DNA of 64,000 nt from Thermodesulfobacteriota bacterium (GTDB taxonomy: Bacteria > Desulfobacterota_D > UBA1144 > Nemesobacterales > JAJCZQ01): assembly GCA_965215275.1 (NCBI GenBank), contig OZ244044.1:1440001-1504000 (forward strand). The letters are read 5' to 3'. Positions 42,202-60,591 of the stretch are shown in pieces. The notes beneath the pieces are model-generated. The model was not told the origin of the DNA and did no database searches. It was given only the letters and a program-made list of their open reading frames with translations. How positions within the stretch are numbered: position 1 is the first letter of the stretch; every line of letters begins with the position of its first letter. The position numbers were made by a program, and so were the translations under genes.

Positions 42202-42224
42202 TCATTCAGGATACAAAGTAAAAT
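42195..42224 (+). promoter_or_regulatory. Sigma70 promoter shared by the S8-like paralogs (copies at 46277, 46438, 54438, 56496)
   Basis: TTGACA, 17-18 bp, TAAAAT found five times; each is followed 9-10 nt later by an ATG. Confidence 0.75.
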
Positions 42225-42234
42225 GAAACAAGTT

Positions 42235-44283
42235 ATGAACATCTTATTTCGAATAATACCCCCCCCCTTCCCATCTAAGTCAGTAATTCCCTTTTTCTTT
42301 CTTCTGTGTTTTGTATCTATTGAGGCATATGGCCAGAGTAGTAATTGTAATGCCAATGCAAATATTGATGCTACGCTGACATTGGATGGAGGTAACAAAG
42401 TTGTGACCTTCCAAGCTAATGGAGGACTGAATTACTATCAGATAGACCTGACAGTCCCCGTTATCATAAATATAGATGGAATGGTCAATTCTACCACCTC
42501 CAATAACGTGCAAGCCAGTTTAGAGTTGTGTAACAGCAATGATGATCTGATAACAAGTGTAAGTGGCGGTGGCAGTGCAGATGTAGAATTGGATATTACA
42601 GCAGTTTACCTGATCCCGGGAACTTACTATATTGTTGTGAAAAGCAATGTAGCTGGAGCATCTGATGTTGAAGTTATAAAAGAAGCAGATGCATGTAGGA
42701 CTACTACCAGTTTCAATGATCCCTTATACGGCTGTCAGTGGCATCTGAAAAACACAGGACAGCTCGGGGATATAACTAGCTCTGGAGAAGATATAAACGT
42801 AGAAGGGGTGTGGGATGATAATGTATTCGGTGCTGGAATTAACGTGGCAGTGGTAGATGATGGTATGCAGACGGGTCATGAGGACCTTACTGATAATGTA
42901 AATACCAGCCTGAATCATGATTATTCAGGGAACAATGACGTATACGACCCTTCAAAAGCTCGTGGTACACGTGTATCGGGAGTTATAGCAGCAACAGGTG
43001 ATAACAGCCTTGGAGTAAGAGGCGCAGCACCCCAGGCAGGCATCTATAGTTATAACTTAGCTGGTAATTTAACTTCCGCTAACGCAAAGGATGCTATGAT
43101 CCGTAACAGAGATACAACGGCCGTATCCGTCAATAACTGGGGACCGGAGGACACGTCTGTTCTTATAGAGGCTTCATCAGAGTGGGAGGAAGGAGTGGGA
43201 ATGGGTATAAGTGAAGGGCTTGGTGGTAAAGGGGTATTTTACGTGTGGGCGACTGGAAACAGAGGTGACAACCGCGGTCAGGCTAATTTTGATGAATATT
43301 CCAACTACTACGCAGTAACTGCCGTATGTTCGGTAGATAGAGAAGGAAACAAAAGTTCTTTTTCAGAAGAGGGAGTAAATCTGTGGGTATGTGCTCCAGG
43401 TGAAGATATTACAACTACTGATAATAACGATGGATATATTTTTGATGCAAGTGGAACGGCATATTCAGCAGCGCAGGTTGCAGGTGTGGCGGCACTGATG
43501 AGAGAGGTAAACAGTGATCTTAGCTGGAGAGACCTTAAACTGATACTTGCAGCTTCAGCCCGTAAGAACGACGGTTCTGACACGGGCTGGGAGACAGGGG
43601 CACATAAATACGGTTCTGATACAGAAAGTTATAATTACAACCCTAAGTACGGTTTTGGTGTGGTAGATGCTGAAGCAGCAGTAGGGCTTGCTGAAAGCTG
43701 GACTAATGTTCCAAGGATGAGAACTCAGACCGCTTCTTCTGGAACTATTGATATGGCAATCCCCGACTACAATGACGCAACTTCAACAGACGGAGTACTT
43801 GTTTCCAGACTGACAATACCAGATACTTCTCTTTCTTTTACAGAGTTTGTAGAGGTAGAGCTTAATTTCTCTCACACATACTTACCAGACCTGAACATAC
43901 AGATAACCTCTCCTGACGGTACTGTGTCGCAACTTACTGAGATAGATTCAAACAGCTTTGGTTACACAGATAAAACTCATCGTTTTGGTTCAGCCAGGCA
44001 CCTTGGAGAAGACCCTGCTGGAGAATGGACTTTGAAAATATCTGACACTGTTTCTGACGATACAGGGACGTTACACTCGTGGAGCATTAAAGTCTATGGT
44101 CACAGTAAGGAAGATACAGTACGAAGACCAGGAACACCAGGTGCTGATTCAGGTGGAGGAGGATGTGCGGTCTCCGATCAGAGAGGCGTTATTCCTGATC
44201 TGCTCGGAGCAGTGGCATGTCTGATGCTTATACCTGTATCTGTAGTGATCAGAAGGAAGATAAGGTCTCATATAAAGATGTAA
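42235..44283 (+). CDS. Exported S8/kexin-like pseudo-protease with P-domain and C-terminal anchor (paralog A)
   Basis: DPLYGCQWHL, VAVVDDG, RGT in place of HGT, GTAY in place of GTSM, P-domain, GGGGC-TM-basic tail; ATG 42223 overlaps the -10 box so 42235 is preferred. Confidence 0.85.
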   Translation: MNILFRIIPPPFPSKSVIPFFFLLCFVSIEAYGQSSNCNANANIDATLTLDGGNKVVTFQANGGLNYYQIDLTVPVIINIDGMVNSTTSNNVQASLELCNSNDDLITSVSGGGSADVELDITAVYLIPGTYYIVVKSNVAGASDVEVIKEADACRTTTSFNDPLYGCQWHLKNTGQLGDITSSGEDINVEGVWDDNVFGAGINVAVVDDGMQTGHEDLTDNVNTSLNHDYSGNNDVYDPSKARGTRVSGVIAATGDNSLGVRGAAPQAGIYSYNLAGNLTSANAKDAMIRNRDTTAVSVNNWGPEDTSVLIEASSEWEEGVGMGISEGLGGKGVFYVWATGNRGDNRGQANFDEYSNYYAVTAVCSVDREGNKSSFSEEGVNLWVCAPGEDITTTDNNDGYIFDASGTAYSAAQVAGVAALMREVNSDLSWRDLKLILAASARKNDGSDTGWETGAHKYGSDTESYNYNPKYGFGVVDAEAAVGLAESWTNVPRMRTQTASSGTIDMAIPDYNDATSTDGVLVSRLTIPDTSLSFTEFVEVELNFSHTYLPDLNIQITSPDGTVSQLTEIDSNSFGYTDKTHRFGSARHLGEDPAGEWTLKISDTVSDDTGTLHSWSIKVYGHSKEDTVRRPGTPGADSGGGGCAVSDQRGVIPDLLGAVACLMLIPVSVVIRRKIRSHIKM

Positions 44284-44407
44284 CAATGCAGTCTCTTTCC
44301 AGAATGTTGAATTAATTAAGATCTTTCCCATCAAAATATCTGCTGGCTGCTTATGAGAGAAGGAACGGTATCTTTCTGTTAAAGTCCTTTTTTCCTTTGG
44401 TTTATAA

Positions 44408-44689
44408 TTATTTTGCCATCCCGGCATATGCAACCGGTCGGGTGTCTCCGAACGTCTTTACAAGTGTTTCAAGGAATTCTTCGGAATGCTCGGAGCAGAA
44501 AAAATAGGTTAGAACAGTGTTACCGGACTTGGTTACGCTTAATACCTGGTAGTGGCGGCTGCAAAGGTCTTTGTTGCACATTACACATTCTTTTATCGCC
44601 AGTCTTTCTCCTTCAAGAGTACATCTTTCCCCGTCCTCTCCTATGTTGTCACACTGATATACCTCAACGGATATTTTCCTTTTTGACAT
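44408..44689 (-). CDS. Small Cys/His-rich (probable zinc-binding) hypothetical protein
   Basis: CVMCNKDLCSRH and FCSEH; SD-like AGGAGA upstream. Confidence 0.65.
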   Translation of the reverse strand: MSKRKISVEVYQCDNIGEDGERCTLEGERLAIKECVMCNKDLCSRHYQVLSVTKSGNTVLTYFFCSEHSEEFLETLVKTFGDTRPVAYAGMAK

Positions 44690-44742
44690 CTATTCTCTCC
44701 TTATAGTTTTATATACACTCCATTTTTTACATTAATAAGTAT

Positions 44743-44963
44743 AGGAATTATAAAGATTGATTTACAAGAAATAAAATTTTTAATAATAAGCATTAGGAAA
44801 ATCAGAATATCCATAACGGATATAAATCTGTATCGGGTGGAGCAGTTAAAATGGGGAAAAGACTCCCGGTGGGTGCTATGGGTATTTTAAAATCAAAAGA
44901 ACAAGAGGAACTTTGCACTCAGAACGGTAAAGGTATTGTCGTCGGACGATCTTTATAGTTCTC
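44743..44963 (+). mobile_element. 221-bp MITE carrying a TnpB omegaRNA-like scaffold but no ORF
   Basis: Ends AGGAATTATAAAGATTG and (rev. comp.) GAGAACTATAAAGATCG; degenerate TSD ATAAGTAT/ACAAGCAT; blocks 20/24 and 29/32 identical to the tnpB 3' end. Confidence 0.8.
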
Positions 44964-45100
44964 ACAAGCATATAAGATTGACGGCGATATGATCAGTCTG
45001 AATAACAGCGGTATTTAACTGATTTGCAATCCAACGAGATTTAGTAGACAGTATTACCCGCACAAATTATATTTTGTAAAATTTATTAAGCTATATAAGA

Positions 45101-46069
45101 ATGATCTCCACCAATCAAGCTATTAACGGGACTCTGAAGTTTTTATACAATCGGATCACGAAAAGGCCCACACTTGTAAATCTTGAAGTAACAAAGCTGT
45201 GTAACGCTACGTGTGATTTTTGTGATTACTGGCAGACAAAGCACGAGGAAAGAATTACCGATTACAGACCCGTAATTAAAAAAATTAATCCTCTGGTGAC
45301 GGTAATTACCGGCGGGGAGCCAATGTTAAGAAAGGACCTTCCTGATATTGTCAGGCAGATCAAAGAGTGTTCAATGTTTATTTTTGTCTCTATGGTAACA
45401 AAAGGGGACCTGTTGACCGTTGATAAGGCGAAAGAACTTTTTGAGGCAGGTATGGACCAGATAGCAGTTTCTCTGGATTTTCCCGGCAAGACCCACGATA
45501 CGTATCGCGGGATACCTGGTCTCTGGGACCATATTTCTGAATTGATGCCTAAACTTGCTGAAGTTTTTCCAAAGAAAACAGTGGTTTTAAATACAATAAT
45601 TATGGAGGATAACCTTGATCAGGTCGTAAAGATAGCAGAGAAAGCAAGAGAGTGGGGTGTCAGGATATCTTTTAGTTCTTACTCCGTGATGAAAACAAAC
45701 AACGAAGGTCATTTTATCAGGAAAAAGCAGTTACAGAAAGTTAAGGACGTGATCGATGAACTTATAGAACTGAGGCAACAGTGGAAGGGAACGATTCTGT
45801 CCACGGAATATTATTTAAGGATGGTACCTGCTTATTTTGAAAACGGTGGAGTTCCAGACTGCTTTGCTGGTGTAAGTCACCTTCAGGTTACCCCGAGTGG
45901 GCATTTAAAAAGGTGTTCGGAAATGCCCGTTGTTGCACGCTACGATGAATACAGCCCTGAACTGTTTGACAAAACAAAGTGTGAGGCATGCTGGTACAGT
46001 TGCAGAGGTGAGACACAGAGCCCTGCCAACGTTAGAAGAATGCTTGAATACATGGGGGTCTGGCTTTAA
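45101..46069 (+). CDS. Radical SAM protein with C-terminal Cys cluster (SPASM/twitch-like)
   Basis: CNATCDFC, ITGGEP, C-terminal CEACWYSC. Confidence 0.87.
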   Translation: MISTNQAINGTLKFLYNRITKRPTLVNLEVTKLCNATCDFCDYWQTKHEERITDYRPVIKKINPLVTVITGGEPMLRKDLPDIVRQIKECSMFIFVSMVTKGDLLTVDKAKELFEAGMDQIAVSLDFPGKTHDTYRGIPGLWDHISELMPKLAEVFPKKTVVLNTIIMEDNLDQVVKIAEKAREWGVRISFSSYSVMKTNNEGHFIRKKQLQKVKDVIDELIELRQQWKGTILSTEYYLRMVPAYFENGGVPDCFAGVSHLQVTPSGHLKRCSEMPVVARYDEYSPELFDKTKCEACWYSCRGETQSPANVRRMLEYMGVWL

Positions 46070-46561
46070 ACTCATTTGACGGGTTTTAACGGTTGCGTTC
46101 CTGATGCTGTAAACTTAACACAGCAGGGAAGTTATCAGCGATTTTACCTGCCTGTTTCTTATAGACGTTGCCATCTGAATACCATCTGTTGTGAAGATTG
46201 ATTTTTCAGAAGTCGTACCGCTTGGTGTAGCAGAGAGGTTCTTGTTTCTATTAAAGGGAATTATATTTATACACGCTTGACATTCGTTCATAATACAAAG
46301 TAAAATGAAAGGGTTATGAGTATGAACGTATCTTTTAGAGTAATACGCCTTTTTAATGATAGTGAAAGTAAATCTTTCAAAGTGAAATACAGTTTAACTT
46401 ACCTTTTATTATAAACATGCATAGATATTGTTCATACTTGACATTACGGCGGAACGGAAGTAAAATATCGGCATCATGAAAAATCCAAACGTAAAAAAGC
46501 GTAGTTCTATTACCCCCCCCCGTGTATACCCGACCTTTCAGCTGTATACGGGTATCCTGCA

Positions 46562-49500
46562 ATGACAATGCTTAAGTTCATATCCCCCCCCCCGTCTAAG
46601 TCCATACTTCCCCTTGTCCTTTTCCTTCTGTGCGTAATCACCGTGGTTGCAAGTGGACAGGGCAGTGAAAAGGACCCGTTCTCCGAATGCAGGGGTATCA
46701 GTGCAGACGCGGAAGATCCGCTGTACGGATGTCAGTGGCATCTGAGGAACACTGGACAGCTTAGTTATTCCGGAAAGAGGACAACTGCGGGAGAGGATAT
46801 AAACGTGGAGGGAGTGTGGAACGACGGGATATCCGGTGCCGGGATCAATATAGCAGTGGCAGGTGACGGCGTCGACCTTTCCCATGAGGACCTTTCTGCG
46901 AACGTCCGTTCCGGACCGAACCACAGTTTTTCTGGAAAAAACAATTCCGGAAAGAACAGTTTTGAGAAAAACAATTCAGAAAGCGGTGATCTTTCCGATA
47001 GTTCATCCCTTACCGGAACGCGAGCAGCAGGAGTAATAGCAGCAACTGGATATAACGGACTGGGAGTAAGAGGAGTTGCACCTGGTGCTAGTATATACAG
47101 TAATGAGTTAACAGAAGATCTCAGTGAAACAGAAGCAATGGTGCGTAATAAAGAAATAACTGCAGTATCCGTTAACGACCGGGGATCTGAGGAGGGAGTT
47201 TTATTACAGGGGGCTTCGGCTGAGTGGGAAGAGGGAGTGGAAGAGGGTATAAGGGAAGGGTTTTACGGCAGGGGAATATTTTACGTCCTGGGAGCAGGGG
47301 ACGGACATGAGAGCGGAGATCAGGCTAATTTTTCTGAATATTCCAACTATTACGGTGTAACGGCGGTATGTTCAACTGACGGCTTTGGAAAGAAGAGTAT
47401 ATTTTCAGAAGAGGGAGTAAATCTCTGGGTATGTGCACCTGGTTCTGATATTGTGACCACTGATAACGACGACGGCTACGCCGTGGCTTCCGGAACATTT
47501 CTTTCAGCTTCACAGGTTGGAGGAGTGGCAGCACTGCTGAGAGAAATAAATGGAAACCTGAGCTGGAGGGATATAAAGCTTATACTTGCGGGTTCGGCAC
47601 GGCAGAACGATCTTTCTGACATGAGCTGGGAGACAGGAGCATTTAAATACGGTTCTGATACTGAAAGATATAATTATAACCCTAAGTATGGTTTTGGTGT
47701 GGTAGACGCGGAGGCGGCCGCAGAGCTTGCCGGAAGCTGGAAAGGAGTGGGAGAAATGAGGACCGTTACAGCTTCCTCGGATAATGAACTGACGATCCCT
47801 GATGGAGAAGGAGAGGCGGACGGGGTCCTTACCTCCAGACTTATGATTTCGGACCTGGAGGAAATATTTACGGAGTTCGTTGAGGTAGAACTCGTTCTCT
47901 CGTGTGACTGCCTGCAGGACCTCAATATACGGATAACCTCTCCTTCCGGGACAGTATCGGAACTTGTGCGGGAGTCTGCCAGTGAGTTTGTAAGGGGATC
48001 TTCGAATGAAGAAAACGACTGCGTCAGTTACCTGGGGAAAAAACATCGTTTCGGTTCGGCAAGACACCTCGGGGAAGACCCTTCCGGAGAATGGACCCTT
48101 AAGATATATAATACTGCTTCCGGAGATGAAGAAGATACAGAAAATACCGTTACCCTGCACTCATGGAGCATCAGGGTATACGGGCACGGGAAGGGGGATA
48201 CTTTAACGGACTTTGGCGGGGAGATCACTGCCAAGGCTTTAACTTTGGGTAATGTTCCTGGTGGTAGGCTGACCTGGACGCAACATAAGCTGGTAAACGC
48301 AAGGTTATTCGAGGCAGCCGGAGGCAGGCCGCCGTATACTTACAGTTTAGCTCCTTTACCTCCTGGATTGAATTTTAACGGAACCACCAGAATTATAAAC
48401 GGGAGACCGACCGCTGCAGGTGACACCGACGTTCAGTATACGGCAAGAGACGCAAATAACGATACGGCACGGAGTGACTTCGTTATAAGGATAACGGCGA
48501 ACGCCGCGCCGGTTTTTGGCAGCAAGACGGTTGCTGCTCAGGTGTACACGGCAAGGAAAGCAATAGAACCATTGGAACTTCCCGAGGCAACGGGAGGGGA
48601 TGGAACCTTGACTTACAATATAAGTGGTAACGTCAGGGGTATAGGGTTGAACTTTAACCGTAACACAAGGATACTGAGCGGAATGCCCACCAGTGTTACG
48701 CCTGGTATTACAGCCGTTTATACCGCCACTGACGCAGATGGAGATACTGCCGAACTGAGGTTCAATATACGGGTAAGACATCAGAACGACATACCGACCT
48801 TTGGCAGTCAGACGGTAGATGATCAGAATTGGGTTAACGGCAGTGCAGTAAGGCTAACGCTGCCTCGTGCAAGAAACGGGAACGGAACGTTAATTTACAG
48901 TTTAGGGCTTGCCGTTAACATGAATGCATTACTTGCCGGACTGGATTTTAACAGAAACACCAGAGTGTTAAGCGGAACGCTCAGGATACCCCCGGCGGCA
49001 ATACCTCCTGCTGGGATTACACACAGATATACGGTAACGGACAGTGATAACGATACTCATGAAAGTGATTCTGACAGTTTGACCTTCGGGATCACTGTAT
49101 CAGCGGACGCAATGCCGACCTTTAGCAGTGAGACGATAGATGATAAGGAATACATAGCAGGAAGTCAGATAAAGCCGGTAACGCTGCCAGTGGCAACATC
49201 GGGGAATACTCCGTTAACCTACGGTATAACCCCTGCTTTGCCTGATGGACTGGACTTTGATCCTGCTACCCGGGTGCTGAGCGGAACACCGACCACTGCG
49301 ATGTCTCAGACTACCTATACATATACAGTAACGGACGTAGATGACGACCCGGCTGAGTTAACGTTTGATATCACTGTATCAGCGGACGCAATGCCGACCT
49401 TCGGCGGTGCGACGATAGAAGACAGGACGACCGTTAACGGCGTTACGGCAGTAATGGAAACACTGCCTCTTGCAACAGGAGGGAACGGAACGCTGACTTA

Positions 49501-50140
49501 CAGTTTAACTGATGCCGGTTCAAATGCTTTGAATTTATTTGCCGGACTGGACTTTGATGAAAACACCCGGGTGCTGAGCGGAACACCCGATATCGGTTCA
49601 GCGTTCCTTGATCTGCTTCCCGTAACCGAGACCTATACGTGGATGGTAGCGGACGAAGATGAAGACATGGACGAGTTGACGTTCAGTATAATTATAGAAG
49701 CAGACAGCGAACCTGACCTCAGCGGTGAGACGATAGATGATCAGGTGTACACGGGGACCCCTGTAACTCTTCCTGAGGCAACGGGAGGGAACCCGCCGTT
49801 AAGATACAGTATAATGCCTCGTTTACCAGATGGATTGAGTTTTGATCCTGCTACCAGAAGGATAAGCGGGACACCGACTGCTGCAGCACCTGAGAATACT
49901 TACACGTACACGGTAACGGACAGCAATGACGACGTGGACGTGTTGACTTTCAGGCTCAGTGCAGTTCCGCCACGAGGACCGATGACGTCAGATACCGGTT
50001 CAGGCGGAGGTGGAGGAGGATGTGCCGTCTCGGATCAGAGCAGCGTTGCTTCTGATATCTTTGGAGCAGTGGCATTTCTGATGCTCATACCCGTGTCAGT
50101 ATTTATCAGAAGGAGAAGAAGACCTCATATAAAGACATAG
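46562..50140 (+). CDS. Exported S8/kexin-like pseudo-protease with P-domain, 6 putative Ig-like (He_PIG-type) repeats and anchor (paralog B)
   Basis: Triad positions read AGDG, TGT, GTFL; repeats of the LPDGLDFDPATRVLSGTPT type; GGGGGCAVSDQ tail. Confidence 0.87.
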   Translation: MTMLKFISPPPSKSILPLVLFLLCVITVVASGQGSEKDPFSECRGISADAEDPLYGCQWHLRNTGQLSYSGKRTTAGEDINVEGVWNDGISGAGINIAVAGDGVDLSHEDLSANVRSGPNHSFSGKNNSGKNSFEKNNSESGDLSDSSSLTGTRAAGVIAATGYNGLGVRGVAPGASIYSNELTEDLSETEAMVRNKEITAVSVNDRGSEEGVLLQGASAEWEEGVEEGIREGFYGRGIFYVLGAGDGHESGDQANFSEYSNYYGVTAVCSTDGFGKKSIFSEEGVNLWVCAPGSDIVTTDNDDGYAVASGTFLSASQVGGVAALLREINGNLSWRDIKLILAGSARQNDLSDMSWETGAFKYGSDTERYNYNPKYGFGVVDAEAAAELAGSWKGVGEMRTVTASSDNELTIPDGEGEADGVLTSRLMISDLEEIFTEFVEVELVLSCDCLQDLNIRITSPSGTVSELVRESASEFVRGSSNEENDCVSYLGKKHRFGSARHLGEDPSGEWTLKIYNTASGDEEDTENTVTLHSWSIRVYGHGKGDTLTDFGGEITAKALTLGNVPGGRLTWTQHKLVNARLFEAAGGRPPYTYSLAPLPPGLNFNGTTRIINGRPTAAGDTDVQYTARDANNDTARSDFVIRITANAAPVFGSKTVAAQVYTARKAIEPLELPEATGGDGTLTYNISGNVRGIGLNFNRNTRILSGMPTSVTPGITAVYTATDADGDTAELRFNIRVRHQNDIPTFGSQTVDDQNWVNGSAVRLTLPRARNGNGTLIYSLGLAVNMNALLAGLDFNRNTRVLSGTLRIPPAAIPPAGITHRYTVTDSDNDTHESDSDSLTFGITVSADAMPTFSSETIDDKEYIAGSQIKPVTLPVATSGNTPLTYGITPALPDGLDFDPATRVLSGTPTTAMSQTTYTYTVTDVDDDPAELTFDITVSADAMPTFGGATIEDRTTVNGVTAVMETLPLATGGNGTLTYSLTDAGSNALNLFAGLDFDENTRVLSGTPDIGSAFLDLLPVTETYTWMVADEDEDMDELTFSIIIEADSEPDLSGETIDDQVYTGTPVTLPEATGGNPPLRYSIMPRLPDGLSFDPATRRISGTPTAAAPENTYTYTVTDSNDDVDVLTFRLSAVPPRGPMTSDTGSGGGGGGCAVSDQSSVASDIFGAVAFLMLIPVSVFIRRRRRPHIKT

Positions 50141-50200
50141 TAATGTGGTCCTTTAAAGAGCATTTCTGAGAGAGAATTGGAGTCTGCTGCTAATAAAAAA

Positions 50201-50608
50201 GGGGGCTATATACAATGTTGCCCAAATTGTATATAATGGTGACAAGAGATTAAAACATAAGAACTTAACAAGATGAACAATCCTTCTACCCCCCCCCATC
50301 AAATACGCTGTTTTATGGTGATTGTTTAGATGTAATACAACAATGGTCAGAGGGTTTTGTTGACCTGTGCTACCTTGACCCACCGTTTAACTCTAAGACA
50401 ACTTACAATATCCTATTTGGGGAAAAAAGTAACAATAGAACTCAAGCCGTTGCTGTTAAAGATACATGGTCTTGGGACGATAAAGCACTTGAACGAGTAA
50501 GTAAGATAAAAAAAGCCGTAGGTCATGGTGCTCATCAGTCTATAACAGGATTACATTCAAAAAAGAATTGATGCTTTTTTATTTTGGGCAACATTGTATA
50601 TAGTCCCC
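50201..50608. mobile_element. TIR-bounded element carrying a DNA methyltransferase fragment
   Basis: GGGGGCTATATACAATGTTGCCCAAA (50201-26) vs 50583-50608 reverse complement GGGGACTATATACAATGTTGCCCAAA (25/26); no direct TSD. Confidence 0.75.
50273..50571 (+). pseudogene. Truncated N6/N4 DNA methyltransferase, out of frame at a C9 tract
   Basis: From 50302: NTLFYGDCLDVIQQWSEGFVDLCYLDPPFNSKTTYNILF...DTWSW; ATG 50273 needs +1 nt in C9 (50289-97); stops after about 90 aa. Confidence 0.82.
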
Positions 50609-50762
50609 TTTCTTTATTAAAGGGGATTTTGTCGTTAGATCTGTACTATAACTACTCTCTTGGTTGTGAAAACTCTAACTTATCCCCGTTAGAAGCGTTG
50701 TATTTGCCACGGGATCAGCGGTGGGTGCAGCCTTTTAAATGATCGTTAATAAATAGTTTCTC

Positions 50763-52211
50763 TTACTTTACCTTCCATACGGTTCTTCCAGGCTTGTCTT
50801 CAAGGATTATGCCTTTTTTATGCAGCTCGTTTCTTATCTGATCGGCTTTGTCCCATTTCTTCTCAGACCTTGCGTTGTTCCTTTTCTTAATAAGGTCTTC
50901 TATCTCTTCCGGGGTTATATCAACTGGTTTTTTGGAAGATCTTTTACTTTCCAGGTACTCATCGGGTGTTTTTTCAAGTATTCCCAGCACGTTTGCAAAT
51001 TTATTGATCTCCTTTAACGATTCACCAAGGGTTTTAGTCCATCCATGGCTATCAATGGATTTATTTATCGTTCTTATAAGCTCGAACATATTGCCTATTG
51101 CATTGGCTGTATTAAAATCATCGCACATTGCCTTATGCCATTTATTTCTGAACTTCTCGAGGTTTTCTTCCAGCTCCGGGTCATATCTGGATGGACTGGA
51201 AGCATCTTTGATCTCATAAGCTCTTTTGAGAGTTGTATAGATCCTCTCTATCGAGGCCTCGGTGTCATCCATGACCTGCTCGGAGAAATCAACTGGATTT
51301 TGATAGTGATGCGAGAGAAAGAAAAGCCTGATCGATTCCGGACTCCATTTTTTCACGGCATTTTGAATGGTAAAGAAATTCCCAAGGGATTTTGACATCT
51401 TTTTACTGTCGATCTGAATAAGTCCATTATGTAACCAGTACCTGGCAAAAGGCTTGCCACTTGCCGCTTCGGACTGAGCAATTTCATTTTCATGATGAGG
51501 AAATATAAGATCTTTGCCTCCTCCGTGTATCTCAAAACTATCTCCAAGGTATTCCATGCTCATGGCTGAACACTCAATGTGCCATCCAGGTCTTCCTTCG
51601 CCCCAGGGACTTGACCATGAAGGTTCACCTTCTTTTGCACCTTTCCAAAGTGCAAAATCAAGTGGATCTTCTTTTTTTTCATTAATATCAATACGCACGC
51701 CCTCAAGCATATTATCAGCGGACCTTTTAGAGAGCTTCCCATATTCCTTGAACTTTCTCACTGAGAAAAAAACGTCGTTACCTGAAACGTAGGCTTGTCC
51801 TTTATTGATTATCTTCTTTATAATTTCTATTATCTTGTCAATGTGCTCCGTTACTTTTGGTTCTACGTCAGGCGTCTGAACTCCAATTGCGGCCATATCC
51901 TGTCTGTATTCGCTTATATACCTTTCAGAGATCTTTTCACAGGATACTCCAAGTTCATTTGCACGCCTGATTATCTTGTCGTCAACGTCAGTGTAGTTTC
52001 TGACAAAAGTAACGTCGTAGCCCACGTATCTCAGAAAACGCTGTATAACGTCAAACGAGACCGCGGACCTTGCGTGTCCGAGATGAGCAGAGTCGTAAAC
52101 CGTCGGTCCGCACGCGTATATTCTTACTTTTTTACCCTTTTGCGGGATCAGCTTTTCTTTTTTCTGCGTAAGGCCGTTATATATGGTTATTTCAGGCAGG
52201 TTTTCATTCAT
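50763..52211 (-). CDS. cysS: Cysteine--tRNA ligase
   Basis: CGPTVY, HLGH, GRPGWHIECS, KMSKS. Confidence 0.97.
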   Translation of the reverse strand: MNENLPEITIYNGLTQKKEKLIPQKGKKVRIYACGPTVYDSAHLGHARSAVSFDVIQRFLRYVGYDVTFVRNYTDVDDKIIRRANELGVSCEKISERYISEYRQDMAAIGVQTPDVEPKVTEHIDKIIEIIKKIINKGQAYVSGNDVFFSVRKFKEYGKLSKRSADNMLEGVRIDINEKKEDPLDFALWKGAKEGEPSWSSPWGEGRPGWHIECSAMSMEYLGDSFEIHGGGKDLIFPHHENEIAQSEAASGKPFARYWLHNGLIQIDSKKMSKSLGNFFTIQNAVKKWSPESIRLFFLSHHYQNPVDFSEQVMDDTEASIERIYTTLKRAYEIKDASSPSRYDPELEENLEKFRNKWHKAMCDDFNTANAIGNMFELIRTINKSIDSHGWTKTLGESLKEINKFANVLGILEKTPDEYLESKRSSKKPVDITPEEIEDLIKKRNNARSEKKWDKADQIRNELHKKGIILEDKPGRTVWKVK

Positions 52212-52382
52212 CGTTTCTGTCTCTGATCTCTAATGATGTTTTCATACTATCTGCTTATGAGTTTTTACAGTATTTCCTTTAGCTTCGCAAGCAGGACCTG
52301 TCGCATTGCCGCCATGGTAACCAGTCTTAACTGTCTTCGGGAAGCACCTTCAACTTAAAAAAGAGGTTCATTTCAGCGGCCG

Positions 52383-53474
52383 TTACATGACTGTAATTGC
52401 CTGGGATTGCCATCCAATAAGCAGTATCCAGTCTGTTTCAAGTTGTGGTCCATTAAGGTCCTGATAAAACGGAAGACCTAACTCCAGGGCGATCCTCTGT
52501 CCTTTCAGGAACTTCGTGTTGCTCCGGTTTATAAAGTTGATGCCGATCAGTCCATCCATCCTGTTCCCACCCTGAAGATCAGGCCGGGCAGTTGGTGCAA
52601 GCATCTGGTTAAGTGCCTCATCTGCACCGTCGATCTCTTGCCATAATTTCCAGTTCAGCCGGAAAGAACCGCTCAGCCAGTAATTAAAGTCGTATGCTGA
52701 CCACGTGGTCAGGTCCAGCCTGTTCCCCAGCTTATAATTACGGTCATTTTCGTTCAGCCTGATAGTTGCTTTTGCCTGTCCTCCCAGGTTCAGGTTCTCC
52801 CATCTCTGATAGTAGGTTATCCCCGGCGTTATATCCCAGGTGCCGGAACCAAGCTGCATAGGGTATGGAAGCTGTGTTCTGTTTGGTCCCGTTGGCGTCG
52901 GAACCGTGTCTTTTTTATCGATTGATCCCGTTGGAAAGCTCATTCCAAAGTTCAGGATAAGGCTTCTTTTACTGCCTTGATCAGTGATCCTGTATAAACC
53001 CTCGAACCTGATATCTCCGATCCCTTCGGAACTGGTTTTAAACTGTCCACCCGTCCTGTTTTTTATATCTATTGATTTTTTCACGTAGGGAACTGAACCC
53101 ATGAGCGTTAACTTATCAGTTAATCCTAACATACCGCCGAACATGTGCATCTGCTCTTTCATCTTGATTGGCGTTGCCATAAAATCTGCAAGTACCTGTT
53201 CATCGGTTATCCCGTCCGTCCCGTTCCTCATTCCTTCCATTGCCATAAACATGTAGCGATAGGAGAACATTAATTCACCTGTCTCGTGCGTGTGTTCTCC
53301 CATTACTCCGATCGGTCCATGGTCGCCTGCCTTAAGTCCGTCTTCAGATCCGGTCCTTGCATCTGCAGATAAGACGGATATTGATGTTATTATTATGATC
53401 AGTGCTGCCGCTGTCAGCAGGTTCTGGAGCACCTTCAGATCTTTACAGGGATAGATGGACCGGGATCTGATCAT
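52383..53474 (-). CDS. Putative outer-membrane beta-barrel transporter with His/Met-rich N-terminus
   Basis: Signal peptide, DHGPIGVMGEHTH, LPYPMQLGSGTWD, amphipathic beta strands. Confidence 0.7.
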   Translation of the reverse strand: MIRSRSIYPCKDLKVLQNLLTAAALIIIITSISVLSADARTGSEDGLKAGDHGPIGVMGEHTHETGELMFSYRYMFMAMEGMRNGTDGITDEQVLADFMATPIKMKEQMHMFGGMLGLTDKLTLMGSVPYVKKSIDIKNRTGGQFKTSSEGIGDIRFEGLYRITDQGSKRSLILNFGMSFPTGSIDKKDTVPTPTGPNRTQLPYPMQLGSGTWDITPGITYYQRWENLNLGGQAKATIRLNENDRNYKLGNRLDLTTWSAYDFNYWLSGSFRLNWKLWQEIDGADEALNQMLAPTARPDLQGGNRMDGLIGINFINRSNTKFLKGQRIALELGLPFYQDLNGPQLETDWILLIGWQSQAITVM

Positions 53475-53544
53475 AGAACTTTCCGGAACGTAACGTCCTT
53501 GTTCCTTATGTTTTTCAAAAGCAGACGTGAACTGTTTACAGGGT

Positions 53545-54297
53545 CTATGTTTTTGTTGTTTTTGTTTTGCAGCGTGCTTTCAGTGATTCTATAAAATTTT
53601 TCTGAACGATCTTGCTTGCCCTTCTGATCGGTTCTAAAACCATACTTTCGTATGCTTCAAGAGCGGTCTTTTCAAGTTTACTGTCCCCTGTTTTTCTGGC
53701 AAGCCGGAGCATGGCGATAGAGTTATGAAAAACCGCCTTGAAAAGGTTTTTGCGAGCTTTATCAAGATCAAGGTCCTCAAGGTTCTTCTGTGCTTCGAGC
53801 GTTGCATTAAATCCCACTCCGCAGAAAAGGGTAATGAACTTTTTTGCCTCTTTTTCCGACATACCTTCCATTAAATAGACAAGCGGGGCTTCCACCACGG
53901 ATTCAAGTTCGTTCTTGCTGCCGGACAGGATCTGTGCCAACTGTTTGATCTTGCCGTCGTCCGAATCGGACAGTATATCTCCAAGTGCGTTCTGCACGTG
54001 CATGAGTGCGAAACTGTCCTTTATCTCGTTAAGGCCAAGACCTTCCGACCTCAGTGCCTTTACCTGAACCAGTTTTTCGATCGTTCTTTCAGGATAGTAC
54101 TCTGTGACGTCTTTTGTACCGGTCTTTGCCTTTTTTATTTTAGGCCTGGGAATCAGTTCAAGCTTTGCATAATTACGTATTATGCGTTCTGGGCTTTTTC
54201 CAAGGTCGATCTTTCTCTCTCTGGACCTCTCTATGAGTTCTTCTATTGTAAGATATTTCACGCGGAAAATGTTACGCTCAAAAAGGGGATATTGCAA
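53545..54297 (-). CDS. MerR-like HTH domain protein
   Basis: RIIRNYAKLELIPRP...YYPE...LRSEGLGLNEIK. Confidence 0.6.
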   Translation of the reverse strand: MQYPLFERNIFRVKYLTIEELIERSRERKIDLGKSPERIIRNYAKLELIPRPKIKKAKTGTKDVTEYYPERTIEKLVQVKALRSEGLGLNEIKDSFALMHVQNALGDILSDSDDGKIKQLAQILSGSKNELESVVEAPLVYLMEGMSEKEAKKFITLFCGVGFNATLEAQKNLEDLDLDKARKNLFKAVFHNSIAMLRLARKTGDSKLEKTALEAYESMVLEPIRRASKIVQKNFIESLKARCKTKTTKT

Positions 54298-54476
54298 CCC
54301 CTTACCCGTATATCTCTTATAATGCGTGGTCTTAACGCCTGTATTTTTTGGGAATTATATATTTAACCAAACAGAAATAAAATATGGACCTTGTATCTTT
54401 ATAGCTGTTAACCTGTTATGAGATATTATTCATCCACTTGACATTCGTTCAGGGTACAAAGTAAAATAACAAAGCT

Positions 54477-56195
54477 ATGAACATCTCATTTAGAATAATA
54501 CCCCCCCCATATAAGTCATTAATATCCTTTCTCCTTCTTCTGTGCCTTGTGTCCATTGAGGCATATGGACAGATCAATAACTGTGACACCAGTACTACCG
54601 GTTTCAATGATCCCTTATACGGCTGTCAGTGGCATCTGAAAAACACGGGACAGCTTGGGGCTGTAACTGCCTCTGGAGAAGATATAAACGTAGAAGGGGT
54701 CTGGGACGATAACAGGTTCGGTGCCGGAATTAACGTGGCGGTGGTGGATGACGGTATGCAGACGGGTCATGAGGACCTTTCTGATAATGTAAATAACAGC
54801 CTTAACCATGATTATTCAGGAGGCAGTGACGTATACGACCCTTCAAAAGCTCGCGGAACGCGTGTATCGGGAGTTATAGCAGCAGCGGGAGATAACGGTA
54901 TTGGAGCAAGAGGAGCGGCACCACGGGCAGGCATCTACAGTTATAACCTGGCCGGTAATTTAAACAGCGCTAACGCAAAGGACGCCATGACCCGTAACAG
55001 AGATACAACGGCTGTATCCGTCAACAACTGGGGACCGAATGACCTGCCTCTTCTCAGGGAGGCTTCATCAGAGTGGGAAGAGGGAGTGGAGACGGGTATA
55101 AGTGAAGGGTTTGGTGGTAAGGGGGTATTTTATGTATGGGCGGCCGGGGACGGAGATAAAAGGGCAGATCAGGCTAATTTTGATGAGTATTCCAACTACT
55201 ACGCAGTAACCACCGTATGTTCGGTGGATGGAGAAGGAAACAAGAGCTCTTTTTCAGAGGAGGGAGTAAATCTGTGGGTATGTGCTCCAGGTGAAGATAT
55301 TACAACTACTGACAATAACGATGGATATATTTTTGATGCGAGTGGAACGGCATATTCAGCAGCGCAGGTTGCAGGTGTGGCGGCACTGATGAGAGAGGTA
55401 AACGGAGACCTTGGCTGGAGGGACATAAAGCTTATACTTGCAGCTTCAGCCCGTAAGAACGACGGTTCCGACACGAACTGGGAGACGGGAGCACGGAAAT
55501 ACGGTTCTGATACAGAGAGTTATAATTACAATCCTAGGTACGGTTTCGGCGTGGCAGATGCCGACGCGGCAGTAAAGCTTGCTGAAAGCTGGACTAACGT
55601 TCCAGGGATGAGAACTCAGACCGTTTCCTCGGGAACTGTTGATATGGAAATCCCCATCCACAGCAATGGAGCAGACGGAGAAGTTACTGCCAGACTGACC
55701 ATACCGGATAATGAGTTTTTTACAGAATTTGTAGAGATAGAACTTGATTCCACTTACGGTTACTTTCCAAGTTTAGCTATACAGATAGCGTCCCCTGACG
55801 GTACTGTGTCTGAACTTACCGAGGAGTATTATGCAGGAGCTTTCTCAATTATAAATACCACTCCACTCACTGCAAGCGACTTTATTTACACCGACAGAAC
55901 TCATCGTTTTGGTTCAGCCAGACACCTTGGAGAAGACCCTGCCGGAGAATGGACCTTGAAGATAACTAACACTGATCTGTTTTCTTCAGGCACAGCAACT
56001 TTACACTCGTGGAGCATTAAAGTCTATGGTCACAGTAAGGAAGATACAGTTAGTGATACGTTTGGAGGAGGATGTGTGCTCTCAGATCAGAACGAAGCTG
56101 TTTCTGATCTGCTCACAGCAGTGGCATCTCTGATGCTTATACCCTTATCAGCAGCGATCAGAAAGAAGGTAAGGTCTCATATAAACACCTGGTAA
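54477..56195 (+). CDS. Exported S8/kexin-like pseudo-protease with P-domain and anchor (paralog C)
   Basis: Very similar to paralog A; RGT, GTAY and AAGD substitutions; GGGC-TM-basic tail. Confidence 0.87.
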   Translation: MNISFRIIPPPYKSLISFLLLLCLVSIEAYGQINNCDTSTTGFNDPLYGCQWHLKNTGQLGAVTASGEDINVEGVWDDNRFGAGINVAVVDDGMQTGHEDLSDNVNNSLNHDYSGGSDVYDPSKARGTRVSGVIAAAGDNGIGARGAAPRAGIYSYNLAGNLNSANAKDAMTRNRDTTAVSVNNWGPNDLPLLREASSEWEEGVETGISEGFGGKGVFYVWAAGDGDKRADQANFDEYSNYYAVTTVCSVDGEGNKSSFSEEGVNLWVCAPGEDITTTDNNDGYIFDASGTAYSAAQVAGVAALMREVNGDLGWRDIKLILAASARKNDGSDTNWETGARKYGSDTESYNYNPRYGFGVADADAAVKLAESWTNVPGMRTQTVSSGTVDMEIPIHSNGADGEVTARLTIPDNEFFTEFVEIELDSTYGYFPSLAIQIASPDGTVSELTEEYYAGAFSIINTTPLTASDFIYTDRTHRFGSARHLGEDPAGEWTLKITNTDLFSSGTATLHSWSIKVYGHSKEDTVSDTFGGGCVLSDQNEAVSDLLTAVASLMLIPLSAAIRKKVRSHINTW

Positions 56196-56305
56196 TTCAC
56201 TTCTTTCCAGGACACTTAATTAACTGAGATCTTTCCCGTCAGATATAACGTTGTTAAGAACATCGTCTTTGTTCATTCAGCATGGCCGTCTGTATAATTT
56301 CTTTT

Positions 56306-59300
56306 GGGAACTATAATAGGAAAGTTGACAAAAATGAGGGTTACCCTGAACGGTTGACAGGCTGTATTTTACCTTTATTATTATCAGTGGGAACTGAATA
56401 CCGTCAATTACAGTGAACGGGATAAAAAAGAGAATGATCCCCTGCGTCCTGAATATCATTGTCATTGCAGGAAAGGAAAGAGAAAGAAATTATACTTGAC
56501 ATTCGTTCATAATACGAAGTAAAATATCAGTGTTATGAAAAATTTCATGAAAAATTCAAACATAAAAACAAAAACACGTAGTTCCATTACCCCCCCCCGT
56601 GTATACCTGACCTTTCAGCCTGGTATAAGTGTTTTTTAAGAACAATGTTTAAGATAATACCCCCCCCATCTAAGTCATTACTAACTTTAGTCTTTATTCT
56701 TCTGTGTATAATGGTAATAGCTGCAAAAGGGCAGAGCAGCCTGGAAGAAACATTATCTGAATGCAGAGGTAACAGTGCAGACGTGGAAGATCCGTTATAC
56801 GGATGTCAGTGGCATCTGAAGAACACGGGGCAGTTTATTTATTCAGGAAAGAGAATAACATCAGGAGAAGATATAAACGTAGAGGGAGTGTGGAACGAAG
56901 ACGTATACGGTTCTGGAATTAACGTAGCAATAGTAAGTGACGGTATCGACCTTTCACATGAGGACCTTTCTGCAAACGTCCGTTCCGGACTGAACTATGA
57001 TCTGTCTGACAGTTCATCTTTTAGTGGGACACGAGCGGCAGGAGTTATTGCAGCAACTGGATATAACGGACTGGGAGTAAGAGGAACAGCACCGGGTGCG
57101 AGTATATACAGTTACAGGTTATCCGGTGATCTCAGTGAAGCGGACGCGGTGGTCCGTAATAAGGAAATAACCGCAGTATCGGTTAACGGCCGGGGATCTG
57201 AGGACGGAGCTTTTTTTCAGGAGGCTTCATCTTCCTGGGAAGAAGGAGTGGAACTTGGAATAAGTAAAGGGTTTTATGGAAAAGGTGTGTTTTACGTCCG
57301 GGGAGCAGGGGACGGGCATGAAAGCGGAGATCAGGCTAATTTTAATGAATATTCCAGCTATTACGGAGTAACAGCCGTTTGTTCAACTGACGGTTATGGA
57401 AAAAAGAGTATTTTTTCAGAAGAGGGAGTAAATCTATGGGTATGTGCACCTGGTTCTGATATTGTAACCACAGATAACAACAACGATTACGTTGTAACTT
57501 CCGGAACATTTCTATCAGCTTCACAGGTCGGAGGAGTGGCAGCACTGCTGAGAGAGATAAACGGAGATCTGAGCTGGAGGGATATAAAGCTTATACTTGC
57601 GGGTTCAGCACGGCAGAACGATATTTTTGACCTTAGCTGGGAGACTGGAGCGGTAAAATACGGTTCTGACGTGGAAAGATATAATTATAATCCTAAGTAT
57701 GGTTTTGGCGTGGTAGACGCAGAAGCAGCTGCAGAACTTGCAGGAAGCTGGAAAGGCGTTGGAGAAATGAGGACCGTTACCGCCTTTTCAGATAATGAGA
57801 TAACAATTCCTTATGGAGAAGGAAATGGAGAAGGAGAGGCAGACGGGGTACTTGTCTCCAGACTTATGATCCCGGACGTGGAGGAAATATTTACGGAATT
57901 CGTTGAAGTTGAACTTGTTCTCTCGTGTGACTGCTTACAGGACCTCAATATAAAGCTAACCTCTCCTTCCGGGACAGTGTCTGAACTTGTAAGGGAGTTT
58001 TCAGGGGAGGAAGAAGACGCTGATATCAGTTACCTGAGAAGAACACATCGTTTCGGGTCGGCAAGACACCTCGGAGAAGACCCTGCCGGAGAATGGAACC
58101 TTAAAATATCCGATACTGCTTCCGGAGATGAAGAAGATACAGAAAACACTGTTACCTTACACTCATGGAGCATTAAGGTATACGGGCATGTTTTTTTACA
58201 GGATTTTGGCAAGGAGATCATTACCAAGGCTTTCAGCTTGGGAAGTATCTCTAATAAAACTTACAGAGAAGGAGTTCAGATAACACCATTAGTGCTGCCT
58301 GAGGCAACTGGAACTAATCTGTCAATTACTTACAGTTTAAGTCCTGCCCCACCTGCCGGATTGACCTTTGACAAAACCACCCGAACGATAAGCGGAACAC
58401 CAACTGCTGTAGGCAGGACAAGGCATAATTATAGGGCAAGCATTCCTGGCCAACAACTCAATAGAAACTTTCATATCACGGTAGAAAATAACCCACCCAC
58501 CTTCGGCAGTGAGACTATCCCAAAGAAGAGATATATTCAAGGGACAAATGTAGGTCTTCCAGTAACGCTGCCTGCTGCTACCGGAGGAAATGGAACTTTA
58601 AATTACAGTTTAACCCCTTCATTACCAACTGGATTGGAATTTAATCCTGCTACCCGAGTGATAAGTGGAACTCCAACTGATATTATACAAACTCCTGGTC
58701 GACTTTATACATATAAGGTAACGGACAGTGATGGAGATATAGATAGTTTGAGTTTCCGTATTGAAATATTCAGGGACCAAACGCCAACTTTTAGTGGTGT
58801 GATGGTAGATGATCAGGTGTATACAGCAGGGGTTCAGATAACACCATTAGAGCTGCCTAGGTCAATATTAGGGAATAGCCCATCACACAGTATTACTCCT
58901 GAATTACCTGATGGATTGATTATTGAGACAGAGACGGGCGGTGACGGTGGAATGAGAAGAATAATCATCATACGCGGAACACCAACTACAGCAATGCCTG
59001 AGACTGAGTATACATGGAGAGTAAGAGACACAGATGGAGATACGGACGAGTTAACGTTCAGTATTACTGTATTAGCAGAACCAAACACAGAACCAACCTT
59101 CGGCAGTGAAACTATAGATAACAAGGTGTATATAAACGGAGAGGCAGTAATGGAAACACTGCCTGAAGCAACGTCAGGGAATGCACCATTAACTTACAGT
59201 TTAACTAATATTGGTTCAACTGCTTTGACTTTAGCCGTGGACTTTGATAAGAACACCAGAGTGTTAAGTGGAACACCCAATGTTAATGTACACCTACTTC

Positions 59301-60591
59301 CTATAACTCGTGCATATACATATAAAGTAACAGACAATGATGGAGATACAGCAGAGATAACGTTCAGTATAACAATAGAAGAAGACAGCGAGCCGGACTT
59401 CAGCGTGACGACGATAGAAGATCAGGTGTACATGGGGAGATCAATAAGGTTGCCGGTAGCAACGGGAGGGAATGCACCGTTAGTATACAGTATAACGCCT
59501 CCCTTACCTCCTGGGTTGAGATTGGACAGAGACACAGGGGTAATAAGCGGGACGCCCGCGAGTGCGTCGTCTGAGAGGACCTACACGTACACGGTAATGG
59601 ACAGGGACGGAGACATTAAAGAGTTGACCTTCAGGTTCAGTGCAGAGGTTCCTTCTACTCCAGGACCAGGACCAACAAGAACGTCAGGTAGTGATCCAGG
59701 CGGAGGTGGAGGAGGATGTGCCGTCTCGGATCAGAGCAGCGCCGTTTCTGATATTCCTGGAGTAATGGCATGTCTGATACTTATACCCGTGTCGGTATTG
59801 ATCAGAAGGAAGGGAAGAGCTCGGATAAGGACCTGGCAATGAGTTCCTTTCAGGGACGTTCATGAGAGAGGACCGCGTAATGGTCCTCCCATGTACCCGT
59901 CCGCTTAAGGTAAAGGCAGCGTTACCGCGCACTGGACCGTCCCTGTATTCTGATGAGACGACGGGAGAAGCAGAGGAAGGCATCAGCACGGGTGATCTTC
60001 CGGACGTTCCGTTTACTGAGGTATACCGTTCCCCGTTATAATCCCGTTGTCAGCGTTCCCGGCAGGATACCTTTACAGGGAAAGGGAGCAGGTAGATATA
60101 AAGGCAGGTACACGTCCGGGGATTAGTCCTGAAGGTCTGAAAAGGTTCCGTATCGTGTAATTTCAGCCACGGGGAGGCGTTCACGGTTCCTGGAACGGGA
60201 GGACTTCAACGTCATGGACACGCGGACTTGCCGCTTCGGGGAAAGCGGGGACCCTGACCGAAGAAGGCAGGGAAGTGATCAGGGTTATACTGACCATGCC
60301 GACCGGTCTGAGACAGATAAGGATAAGGTCAGTAAAGGAAAAATAAAAGGTAAACCTCGGGTGAAACCTGCCGCCGCTGATCATAAAGGAAAAACAACGG
60401 GCAATGGATAGATCATCAAGGATGTTTTTAAAAACGGGATAAATCCCGCATAAACGACCTGAAAAAAACAACTAAATAAGAACTGAACAAAAGGTTTAAA
60501 TTGGCAGCAGGTCCTAAAGGAGATCATTTTATAAAAGAAGTTAATGATCAAAGAAAATTATGGGACCTGTCAACTTTCCTTTATAGTTCCC
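56306..60591. mobile_element. 4286-bp transposase-less cargo element carrying paralog D
   Basis: Left GGGAACTATAATAGGAAAGTTGACA, right rev. comp. GGGAACTATAAAGGAAAGTTGACA; perfect TSD TTTCTTTT at 56298-56305 and 60592-60599. Confidence 0.88.
56645..59842 (+). CDS. Exported S8/kexin-like pseudo-protease with P-domain, 5 putative Ig-like repeats and anchor (paralog D)
   Basis: Triad positions read VSDG, SGT, GTFL; close paralog of B. Confidence 0.87.
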   Translation: MFKIIPPPSKSLLTLVFILLCIMVIAAKGQSSLEETLSECRGNSADVEDPLYGCQWHLKNTGQFIYSGKRITSGEDINVEGVWNEDVYGSGINVAIVSDGIDLSHEDLSANVRSGLNYDLSDSSSFSGTRAAGVIAATGYNGLGVRGTAPGASIYSYRLSGDLSEADAVVRNKEITAVSVNGRGSEDGAFFQEASSSWEEGVELGISKGFYGKGVFYVRGAGDGHESGDQANFNEYSSYYGVTAVCSTDGYGKKSIFSEEGVNLWVCAPGSDIVTTDNNNDYVVTSGTFLSASQVGGVAALLREINGDLSWRDIKLILAGSARQNDIFDLSWETGAVKYGSDVERYNYNPKYGFGVVDAEAAAELAGSWKGVGEMRTVTAFSDNEITIPYGEGNGEGEADGVLVSRLMIPDVEEIFTEFVEVELVLSCDCLQDLNIKLTSPSGTVSELVREFSGEEEDADISYLRRTHRFGSARHLGEDPAGEWNLKISDTASGDEEDTENTVTLHSWSIKVYGHVFLQDFGKEIITKAFSLGSISNKTYREGVQITPLVLPEATGTNLSITYSLSPAPPAGLTFDKTTRTISGTPTAVGRTRHNYRASIPGQQLNRNFHITVENNPPTFGSETIPKKRYIQGTNVGLPVTLPAATGGNGTLNYSLTPSLPTGLEFNPATRVISGTPTDIIQTPGRLYTYKVTDSDGDIDSLSFRIEIFRDQTPTFSGVMVDDQVYTAGVQITPLELPRSILGNSPSHSITPELPDGLIIETETGGDGGMRRIIIIRGTPTTAMPETEYTWRVRDTDGDTDELTFSITVLAEPNTEPTFGSETIDNKVYINGEAVMETLPEATSGNAPLTYSLTNIGSTALTLAVDFDKNTRVLSGTPNVNVHLLPITRAYTYKVTDNDGDTAEITFSITIEEDSEPDFSVTTIEDQVYMGRSIRLPVATGGNAPLVYSITPPLPPGLRLDRDTGVISGTPASASSERTYTYTVMDRDGDIKELTFRFSAEVPSTPGPGPTRTSGSDPGGGGGGCAVSDQSSAVSDIPGVMACLILIPVSVLIRRKGRARIRTWQ

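Follow-up and report, generated by a model that had tools for sequence, protein, structure and literature searches.

Kexin-like proteins without catalytic residues behind 5' poly-C runs in a Thermodesulfobacteriota bacterium: a putative phase-variable surface repertoire

Introduction

Subtilases of the kexin group (S8B) depend on an Asp-His-Ser triad, and the acidic S1 residues of Kex2 have been tabulated (PMC2515848, Table 2). Members of the S8 family that have lost the triad can still be functional, as seen in C. difficile, where the pseudoproteases CspC and CspA form a signalling heterodimer and activate CspB (PMC12880746, PMC7200643). Homopolymers at the 5' ends of genes are a general switching mechanism (PMC2831843), and tripartite C-terminal tails with an invariant Cys have been linked to CPBP proteases (10.1101/2023.06.07.544157), MrtX and TraA showing such Cys-type sorting (PMC11980579). 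Here, we describe four kexin-like genes, A to D, that combine these traits in a 64,000-nucleotide (nt) stretch of a Thermodesulfobacteriota genome (the window; contig OZ244044.1 of assembly GCA_965215275.1, positions 1,440,001 to 1,504,000, forward strand). All four encode proteins without the catalytic His and Ser, and they belong to a family of 57 copies, most of which carry a run of C near the start codon whose length sets the reading frame.

Architecture and catalytic positions of A to D

Pfam assigned a Peptidase_S8 domain followed by a P_proprotein (P) domain to each of A to D, and the closest solved structures are those of Kex2 and furin. The four genes are all in frame and have the parts listed below in window coordinates; "dead" denotes the loss of at least one triad residue, and letters in brackets give the residues at the Asp, His, Ser and oxyanion positions.

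42235..44283 (+), gene A, open reading frame (ORF): signal peptide, PPC-like domain (a lead), dead S8+P, Cys-type tail
~42334-42702 (+), PPC-like domain of A (a lead)
42718-44103 (+), S8+P of A (D, R, A, N)
44155-44283 (+), Cys-type tail of A
46562..50140 (+), gene B, 1192 aa: signal peptide, dead S8+P, 6 immunoglobulin (Ig)-like repeats, Cys-type tail
46715-48187 (+), S8+P of B (G, T, F, D)
50012-50140 (+), Cys-type tail of B
54477..56195 (+), gene C, 572 aa: signal peptide, dead S8+P, Cys-type tail
54609-56033 (+), S8+P of C (D, R, A, D)
56064-56195 (+), Cys-type tail of C
56645..59842 (+), gene D, 1065 aa: signal peptide, dead S8+P, 5 Ig-like repeats, Cys-type tail
56789-58189 (+), S8+P of D (S, S, F, D)
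59708-59842 (+), Cys-type tail of D

Alignment to Kex2 placed D212/R247/A413 of A, G101/T151/F313 of B, D91/R126/A292 of C and S98/S127/F289 of D at the Asp/His/Ser positions. A preliminary description, made from the letters of the window, had claimed exactly these changes: His and Ser are missing from all four proteins, and Asp is replaced by Gly in B and by Ser in D. The oxyanion-hole Asn is kept in A alone (N346) and is Asp in B, C and D (D247, D225 and D223, respectively), again as described. With these substitutions, A to D are very likely unable to cut peptides.

The predicted models nevertheless retain the furin/Kex2 fold. AlphaFold models of C (predicted local distance difference test, pLDDT, 83.7) and of D's domain (84.1) matched furin and Kex2 with a target template-modelling score of 0.87-0.89, which speaks for fold compatibility rather than stability because the underlying alignments are rich in active relatives.

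The Ig-like repeats of B and D, six and five as previously stated, were confirmed by motif count, and Pfam He_PIG passes five stretches in B and four in D. No propeptide family of Pfam matched A to D, so the earlier remark that no obvious propeptide is present holds in this respect; however, A possesses an extra N-terminal domain of 120 residues without a Pfam match, for which a language model offers PPC-like as a lead only (score 0.91). The missing propeptide is not a sign of enzyme death, since no propeptide match is on record for the intact paralogues either and the Aeromonas kexin ASP, although propeptide-deficient, is active (PMC5638518).

Contigs of four sequencing runs, taken from two studies of which one may be the source study, differ from the window at 0-3 positions over unique stretches, and dead orthologues are encoded in other assemblies (P0006, 94.7% identical to A; P0154; P0158). 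Chance and assembly error are therefore dismissed for A to D. An assembly artefact was also rejected at C's C run and at the run at 50289, where contigs of other runs agree.

A family of 57 copies with graded loss of the triad

The genome comprises 1,990,023 bases in one contig and is 99.87% complete. It holds 57 dispersed loci of the family (58 frames, as one gene is split in two), which together occupy 176 kb, or 8.9% of the genome. Six copies have an intact D-H-S-N set and one has D-H-S-D, whereas 50 lack at least one triad residue: 10 are D-R-S-D, seven are D-R-A (including A and C), 30 are of the B/D type and three are others. The expanded pseudo-protease family proposed in the preliminary description was thus understated.

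Compared to these copies, the relatives outside the genome, at 43-51% identity, are nearly all intact: Asp and His are present in 87 of 87 and Ser in 86 of 87, and the full triad is retained in 54 of 58 further outside domains. In a quick tree, which used 14 of the 87 outside rows and omitted one deleted copy and one half-gene, the copies of this genome and the proteins of close strains form one clade against the outside rows, and each dead type forms a clade of its own (SH-like approximate likelihood-ratio test, 96-100). Among the matches listed from JGI metagenomes and genomes of other species, the best reached 50% identity and none belonged to the clade; the nearest named loci, again among the matches listed, lie in metagenome-assembled genomes titled Dehalococcoidia/Chloroflexota, Binatia and Thermoanaerobaculia. 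Genomes of this kind often come from sponge symbionts.

The family found no match in four same-family genomes searched (80-99% complete), and P domains occur in 12 of 100 genomes of the order, with one or two matches each; fragmented assemblies may lose repeats of this kind. Since nearly all outside relatives keep the triad and the family was not found in the four same-family genomes searched, both its expansion and its loss of catalysis look recent and lineage-specific. Apart from this clade, the outside proteins P0161, P0179 and P0196 (long) have single S8 domains without the Ser, which are best read as independent, sporadic losses of catalysis.

Purifying selection and gene conversion

The dead clades are under purifying selection. 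The ratio of nonsynonymous to synonymous rates (dN/dS), a measure that gene conversion blurs, was 0.28 when pooled over S8+P of 29 B/D-type copies, 0.39 for seven A/C-type, 0.37 for ten D-R-S-D (DRSD) and 0.38 for the six intact copies. Between A, B, C and D it is 0.18-0.31, at dS values up to 1.5. The P-domain loops and the N-terminal domain evolve fastest.

Segments have been swapped among copies by gene conversion. One tract is found in B:

47705..48705 (+), gene-conversion tract in B: 99-100% identity to a paralogue 384 kb away in five windows of 200 nt

The best matches of the windows preceding this tract are only 82-93% identical. Improbably long identical runs were present in 27 of 1540 copy pairs, and site incompatibility was 0.33 for near sites against 0.49 for far ones, a value as low being reached in 0 of 1000 permutations. 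In addition, the D locus has a 97-99% duplicate at another locus, and the duplication takes in 345 nt of upstream and 754 nt of downstream sequence.

Promoters, C runs and reading frames

Each of A to D has its own promoter and an in-frame C run, and B and D carry an additional leader ORF with a run of its own:

42195..42224 (+), promoter of A: sigma70-type, TTGACA-18-TAAAAT, start codon 10 nt downstream
42259..42267 (+), C9 run of A: codons 9-11, ON state
46277..46414 (+), additional promoter copy ahead of B, together with a short start remnant lacking a C run
46438..46466 (+), promoter P1 of B: TTGACA-17-TAAAAT
46476..46565 (+), leader ORF of B, 29 codons: first C9 run at 46513-46521, stop overlapping B's start as ATGA
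46584..46593 (+), C10 run within the first codons of B: second switch, ON state
54438..54467 (+), promoter of C: TTGACA-18-TAAAAT
54501..54508 (+), C8 run of C: ON state
56496..56525 (+), promoter P1 of D: TTGACA-18-TAAAAT
56535..56639 (+), leader ORF of D: first C9 run at 56590-56598, stop 5 nt ahead of the ATG of D
56660..56667 (+), C8 run of D: ON state

The promoters in the window are strong, with 11 of 12 consensus matches, and 42 of 46 genome-wide matches to the promoter signature lie at family genes. The start codon follows the -10 box by 9-10 nt in 44 of 48 promoter matches. For A, the ORF finder gave an earlier ATG at 42223 (686 aa); the ATG at 42235, 10 nt past the -10 box, appears the better start, and the mRNA is likely near-leaderless.

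Long runs of C or G are far in excess in this genome: 787 runs have length 5, 78 have length 6, none has length 7, and 139 have length at least 8, where extrapolation expects under one. The 5' ends of family genes account for 81 of the 139. As in contingency genes, a 5' homopolymer sets the frame by its length, a C run being present in 49 of the 50 defective copies (the remaining one has G runs), compared to none of the six intact copies. Among 148 S8 frames from outside, only two have a C or G run near the start. The 50 run-bearing copies divide into 38 whose frame is off by one base, 11 in frame (of which two depend on the start chosen) and one unassigned. In A to D, all among the 11, the run is read as Pro-Pro-Pro ahead of the signal peptide. 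That four of the 11 lie within one 18-kb stretch (42223-59842) may be chance, or may explain why the preliminary description came upon these genes.

Run length changes faster than the flanks, which is the second hallmark of contingency genes. It varies in all five groups of copies with identical 14-nt flanks; for instance, six sister copies of D have C9 and are out of frame, against C8 in D itself. The strain orthologue P0035, which corresponds to a member outside the window (90.9% identity), ends in a C10-run peptide, as read from its protein sequence, against an in-frame C17 in this genome. From these length differences among sister copies and one strain orthologue we infer switching, and the family is probably phase-variable.

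A second run lies ~60 nt upstream, within a leader ORF, in 28 copies including B and D. In the 26 leaders with an identified start, run length decides whether the leader is fused to the main frame, stops beside the main start or, in most cases, stops early; one C more in B's leader run would fuse leader and gene. The spacer between the two runs, as in D, may be a decayed second promoter, judged by sequence similarity. A few switches are internal: a G13 run (518332-518344, genome coordinates, contig G000:C1, as for all positions outside the window) splits one copy within the S8 domain, and two intact copies have internal C runs, such as the C17 run at 668426-668442 in the P domain of one of them.

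Three other candidate signals were set aside. An RNA hairpin between the two C runs was rejected, as 28 spacers gave z-scores of -1.4 to +1.9 against base shuffles. Indels at D's runs and at 42268/42275 come from, or cannot be told from, paralogues and were not used. The late starts of the A orthologues P0006 and P0125 are a weak hint of an off state, because gene callers also start the in-frame D late.

Export signals and the Cys-type tail

A to D share an N-terminal hydrophobic stretch and a C-terminal tail of the form GGGGC-x11-TM-RRK, where TM denotes a transmembrane helix. The invariant Cys motif, the helix and the terminal basic cluster recur many times in the genome, on 61 frames, all of them family genes, their pieces or derivatives without the S8 domain. 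Two such derivatives (627284-628603 and 1649106-1650047, both +) keep the C run, signal peptide, N-terminal domain and tail. The tail scores below all named CTERM models, the best being Synerg (16.2 against a cut-off of 22.5) and MYXO (15.5 against 20). One secretin gene is present in the genome, as is a single candidate sorting protease:

680806-681450 (-), G000:C1, CPBP (Rce1-like) protease gene, the only one in the genome: ~250 nt upstream of a family copy on the same strand

CPBP homologues occur in 21 of 30 relatives from the order, and 22 of 100 genomes of the order give weak matches to the tail, so the sorting system is probably order-wide and used by the kexin-like family; a similar tail was found at four of five loci checked. 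Judged from these signals, the family proteins are probably anchored at the surface. The tail, the gene conversion, the poly-C frame switch and the six intact paralogues that lack a 5' switch all go beyond the preliminary description.

Proposed role of the family

We favour, with moderate confidence, the reading that the family is a phase-variable, lipid-anchored and non-catalytic surface repertoire, which would bind or shield rather than cut. Its observed basis is triad loss, family size, the C runs with their frames, purifying selection and gene conversion; for adhesion or shielding as the main role, we see an even chance. The roles suggested in the preliminary description (adhesins, peptide binders or inhibitor decoys) are plausible. 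In this model, a strong promoter of its own would give each copy a near-leaderless mRNA, and strand slippage in the C8-C13 run behind the start codon would turn the copy on or off, most copies being off at the commonest length. The duplicated promoter-start-run module of the B/D type would add a leader ORF that, through fusion, a stop before the main start or an early stop, tunes the level. After export by Sec, the GGGGC-TM-RRK tail of the protein would be lipidated and cleaved by the single CPBP protease, and the secretin system would carry the protein to the surface. There, the dead S8+P head on 0 to ~15 Ig-like repeats might bind host or neighbour molecules, the Arg pocket seeming to persist in A and C, with the exposed surface being varied against recognition by phage or host, while the six intact, unswitched paralogues would provide proteolysis. 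Few copies would be on at a time, and gene conversion would vary the repertoire.

Several points weigh against this reading. No 40-codon window in the S8+P domain has a dN/dS above 1, so diversifying selection is not shown, and the blurring of dN/dS by conversion and the restricted bearing of the fold models count in the same direction. No switching was seen at a locus of the window: contigs of runs X1, X2, X3 and X5 (two studies, one possibly the source) all show C8 for C, and A's run is not bridged by contigs in four further runs; these lengths are read from contigs, which drop rare variants. Most strain orthologues seem to share the state found in this genome. MutS and MutL are intact, open frames, so slippage should be damped; the idea that the runs stem from lost mismatch repair is rejected on the same ground. 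The proportions of 49 of 50 and none of six are not a test, because the copies are kin with few independent origins. Finally, the CPBP gene falls below every myxosortase (Mrt) cut-off, and its homologues are common in the order.

A bolder version would see a combinatorial receptor library of ~50 dead heads with clade-specific clefts, shuffled by conversion and displayed few at a time, which bind host peptides or partner cells. Loss of catalysis would have come with gain of the poly-C switch, the duplicated leader would give three expression levels, and a 10-member clade would have moved its catalytic His. Taken as a whole, this is doubtful.

The substrate cleft bears on another alternative, in which the dead heads act as decoys or traps: by absorbing protease inhibitors of the host or antimicrobial peptides rich in Arg, they would shield the cell along with its six active paralogues. 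Of the Kex2 S1 acids (D277, D320, D325 and E350), C has all four and A has three, and the equivalents of D277, D325 and E350 are kept in seven of seven A/C-type copies. The Arg-binding S1 pocket thus seems to be retained by A and C, whereas B and D, where D325 is missing, seem to have lost part of it. The active paralogues carry the same anchor, and a Ser-to-Ala change is the classic way to make a substrate trap. By contrast, the cleft of the B/D type is altered, with W273 changed to Arg in 21 of 29 copies, D325 to Ser or Asn in 29 of 29, and the nucleophile to Phe or Val. A peptide or inhibitor trap therefore fits A and C better than B and D, but even in A and C the His-to-Arg change puts a long side chain into the cleft, and a decoy does not need 50 mostly silent copies. 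We regard this explanation as unlikely.

Drift is less probable. Copies could accumulate by duplication and conversion in a symbiont of small population size, most of them silent, with homogenisation mimicking conservation, as would suit the 38 out-of-frame copies among the 50 with runs, the further frameshifts or stop in five family copies and the near-identical duplicate of D's locus. The low dN/dS among the four window genes, at dS up to 1.5, is at odds with it, as are triad substitutions that are fixed per clade rather than random, the intact promoters, signal peptides and tails, and the devotion of 9% of a compact genome to the family.

It is also distinctly improbable that the dead copies act like Csp proteins, pairing among themselves or with active paralogues in a sensory, chaperone or regulatory role. 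The C. difficile heterodimer is a precedent, and the family has no propeptide, while the bacterial kexin ASP needs an external chaperone (PMC5638518). However, B and D score ~23 bits against a cut-off of 675 in the CspC model (NCBIfam NF040808), the dead copies are dispersed, separately promoted, mostly off and unpaired with active genes, and the two derivatives keep switch, signal and tail without any S8 domain. A complex prediction for the head of C with an intact paralogue scored 0.01, which is evidence neither way.

Residual or relocated catalysis, through a different set of residues or with substrate assistance as in subtilisin H64A, which is partly rescued by a substrate His (PMC12018205), is highly improbable for A to D: a search for the relocated triad that could have overturned the preliminary description found neither a newly conserved His nor a nucleophile in place of the Ser (Ala or Phe stands there), the conserved His residues being ancestral and common to 67-98% of outside relatives. 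The chance is higher for the DRSD clade, which lies wholly outside the window:

1336543-1339044 (+), G000:C1, example of a DRSD copy

All ten copies keep Asp and Ser, have Arg for His and carry a new invariant His directly after the catalytic Asp, a position where His occurs in 1% of outside relatives; it is possibly a relocated general base.

Significance

No published report of a large phase-variable family of dead subtilases was found in a literature search of listings and abstract openings that covered few subscription journals. Precedents exist part by part, namely S8 pseudoproteases, repeat-switched adhesin families and Cys-type sorting tails. Active enzymes, triple-dead copies and every stage between them sit in one genome, so that the transition from enzyme to pseudoenzyme can be tested directly. 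A pathogen-style contingency system with its 139 long C/G runs is found in an uncultured bacterium of 2 Mb whose mismatch repair is intact. Annotation is affected as well: pipelines label the copies as proteases and place the start of off-state copies beyond the signal peptide.

Other features of the window

No Rfam element was found within 40000-62000 of the window. The neighbouring genes include the following:

1532-2755 (+), IS605-type TnpB gene
5158-9254 (-), cas9 and cas1 genes
20072-22634 (-), three Sulfotransfer_2 genes, with C11 (20788) and C9 (22626) runs upstream of two
44408-44689 (-), Cys-rich ORF of 93 residues between A and a radical SAM gene
50275-50570 (+), methyltransferase start remnant, truncated and out of frame, preceded by a C9 run at 50289; a 92% copy lies elsewhere in the genome

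The last of these we take to be the start of an adenine/cytosine methyltransferase, from its DPPF motif. Two genomes of the same order, G011 and G025, have 130 and 113 C9 runs, compared to 133 in this genome, and no match to the kexin-like family; other families in the order may thus be switched by C runs likewise.

Comparison with known systems

A to D share with Kex2, furin and ASP of Aeromonas sobria the S8+P domains at ~27% identity, the predicted fold and, in A and C, the S1 acids; like ASP, they have no propeptide. Unlike the kexins, the family has lost the triad and possesses an Ig stalk, a Cys-type tail, 57 copies and a poly-C switch. A to D are therefore best described as derived from S8B rather than as active members of it.

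With CspC and CspA, the family has in common a subtilase fold with a substituted triad that is kept for a non-catalytic role. The Csp pair are two soluble spore proteins, compared to 50 predicted surface-anchored copies here, and phase variation of Csp was not found in the literature searched. Csp proteins are not known to have a P domain.

The sorting tail resembles those of the MYXO-, Synerg- and JDVT-CTERM systems with their CPBP myxosortases (TraA, MrtX) in the Gly-rich motif ending in an invariant Cys, the transmembrane helix and the basic cluster, as well as in the many tails per genome and the presence of a CPBP protease and a secretin. It differs in its 11-residue spacer between Cys and helix, in scoring below all hidden Markov model cut-offs and in serving one family only in this genome.

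The Hop/Hor proteins of Helicobacter pylori (BabA, SabA, OipA) are likewise a large paralogous surface family with 5' repeat switching and conversion between dispersed loci (PMC3960876). They are β-barrel adhesins with CT repeats and take up ~4% of the genome, whereas the kexin-like family takes up ~9% and combines a dead enzyme head on an Ig stalk with poly-C runs and a double-run leader. Altogether, the genetics of the family work like those of Hop, and its kept pseudoenzyme is like CspC, but it is a member of neither.

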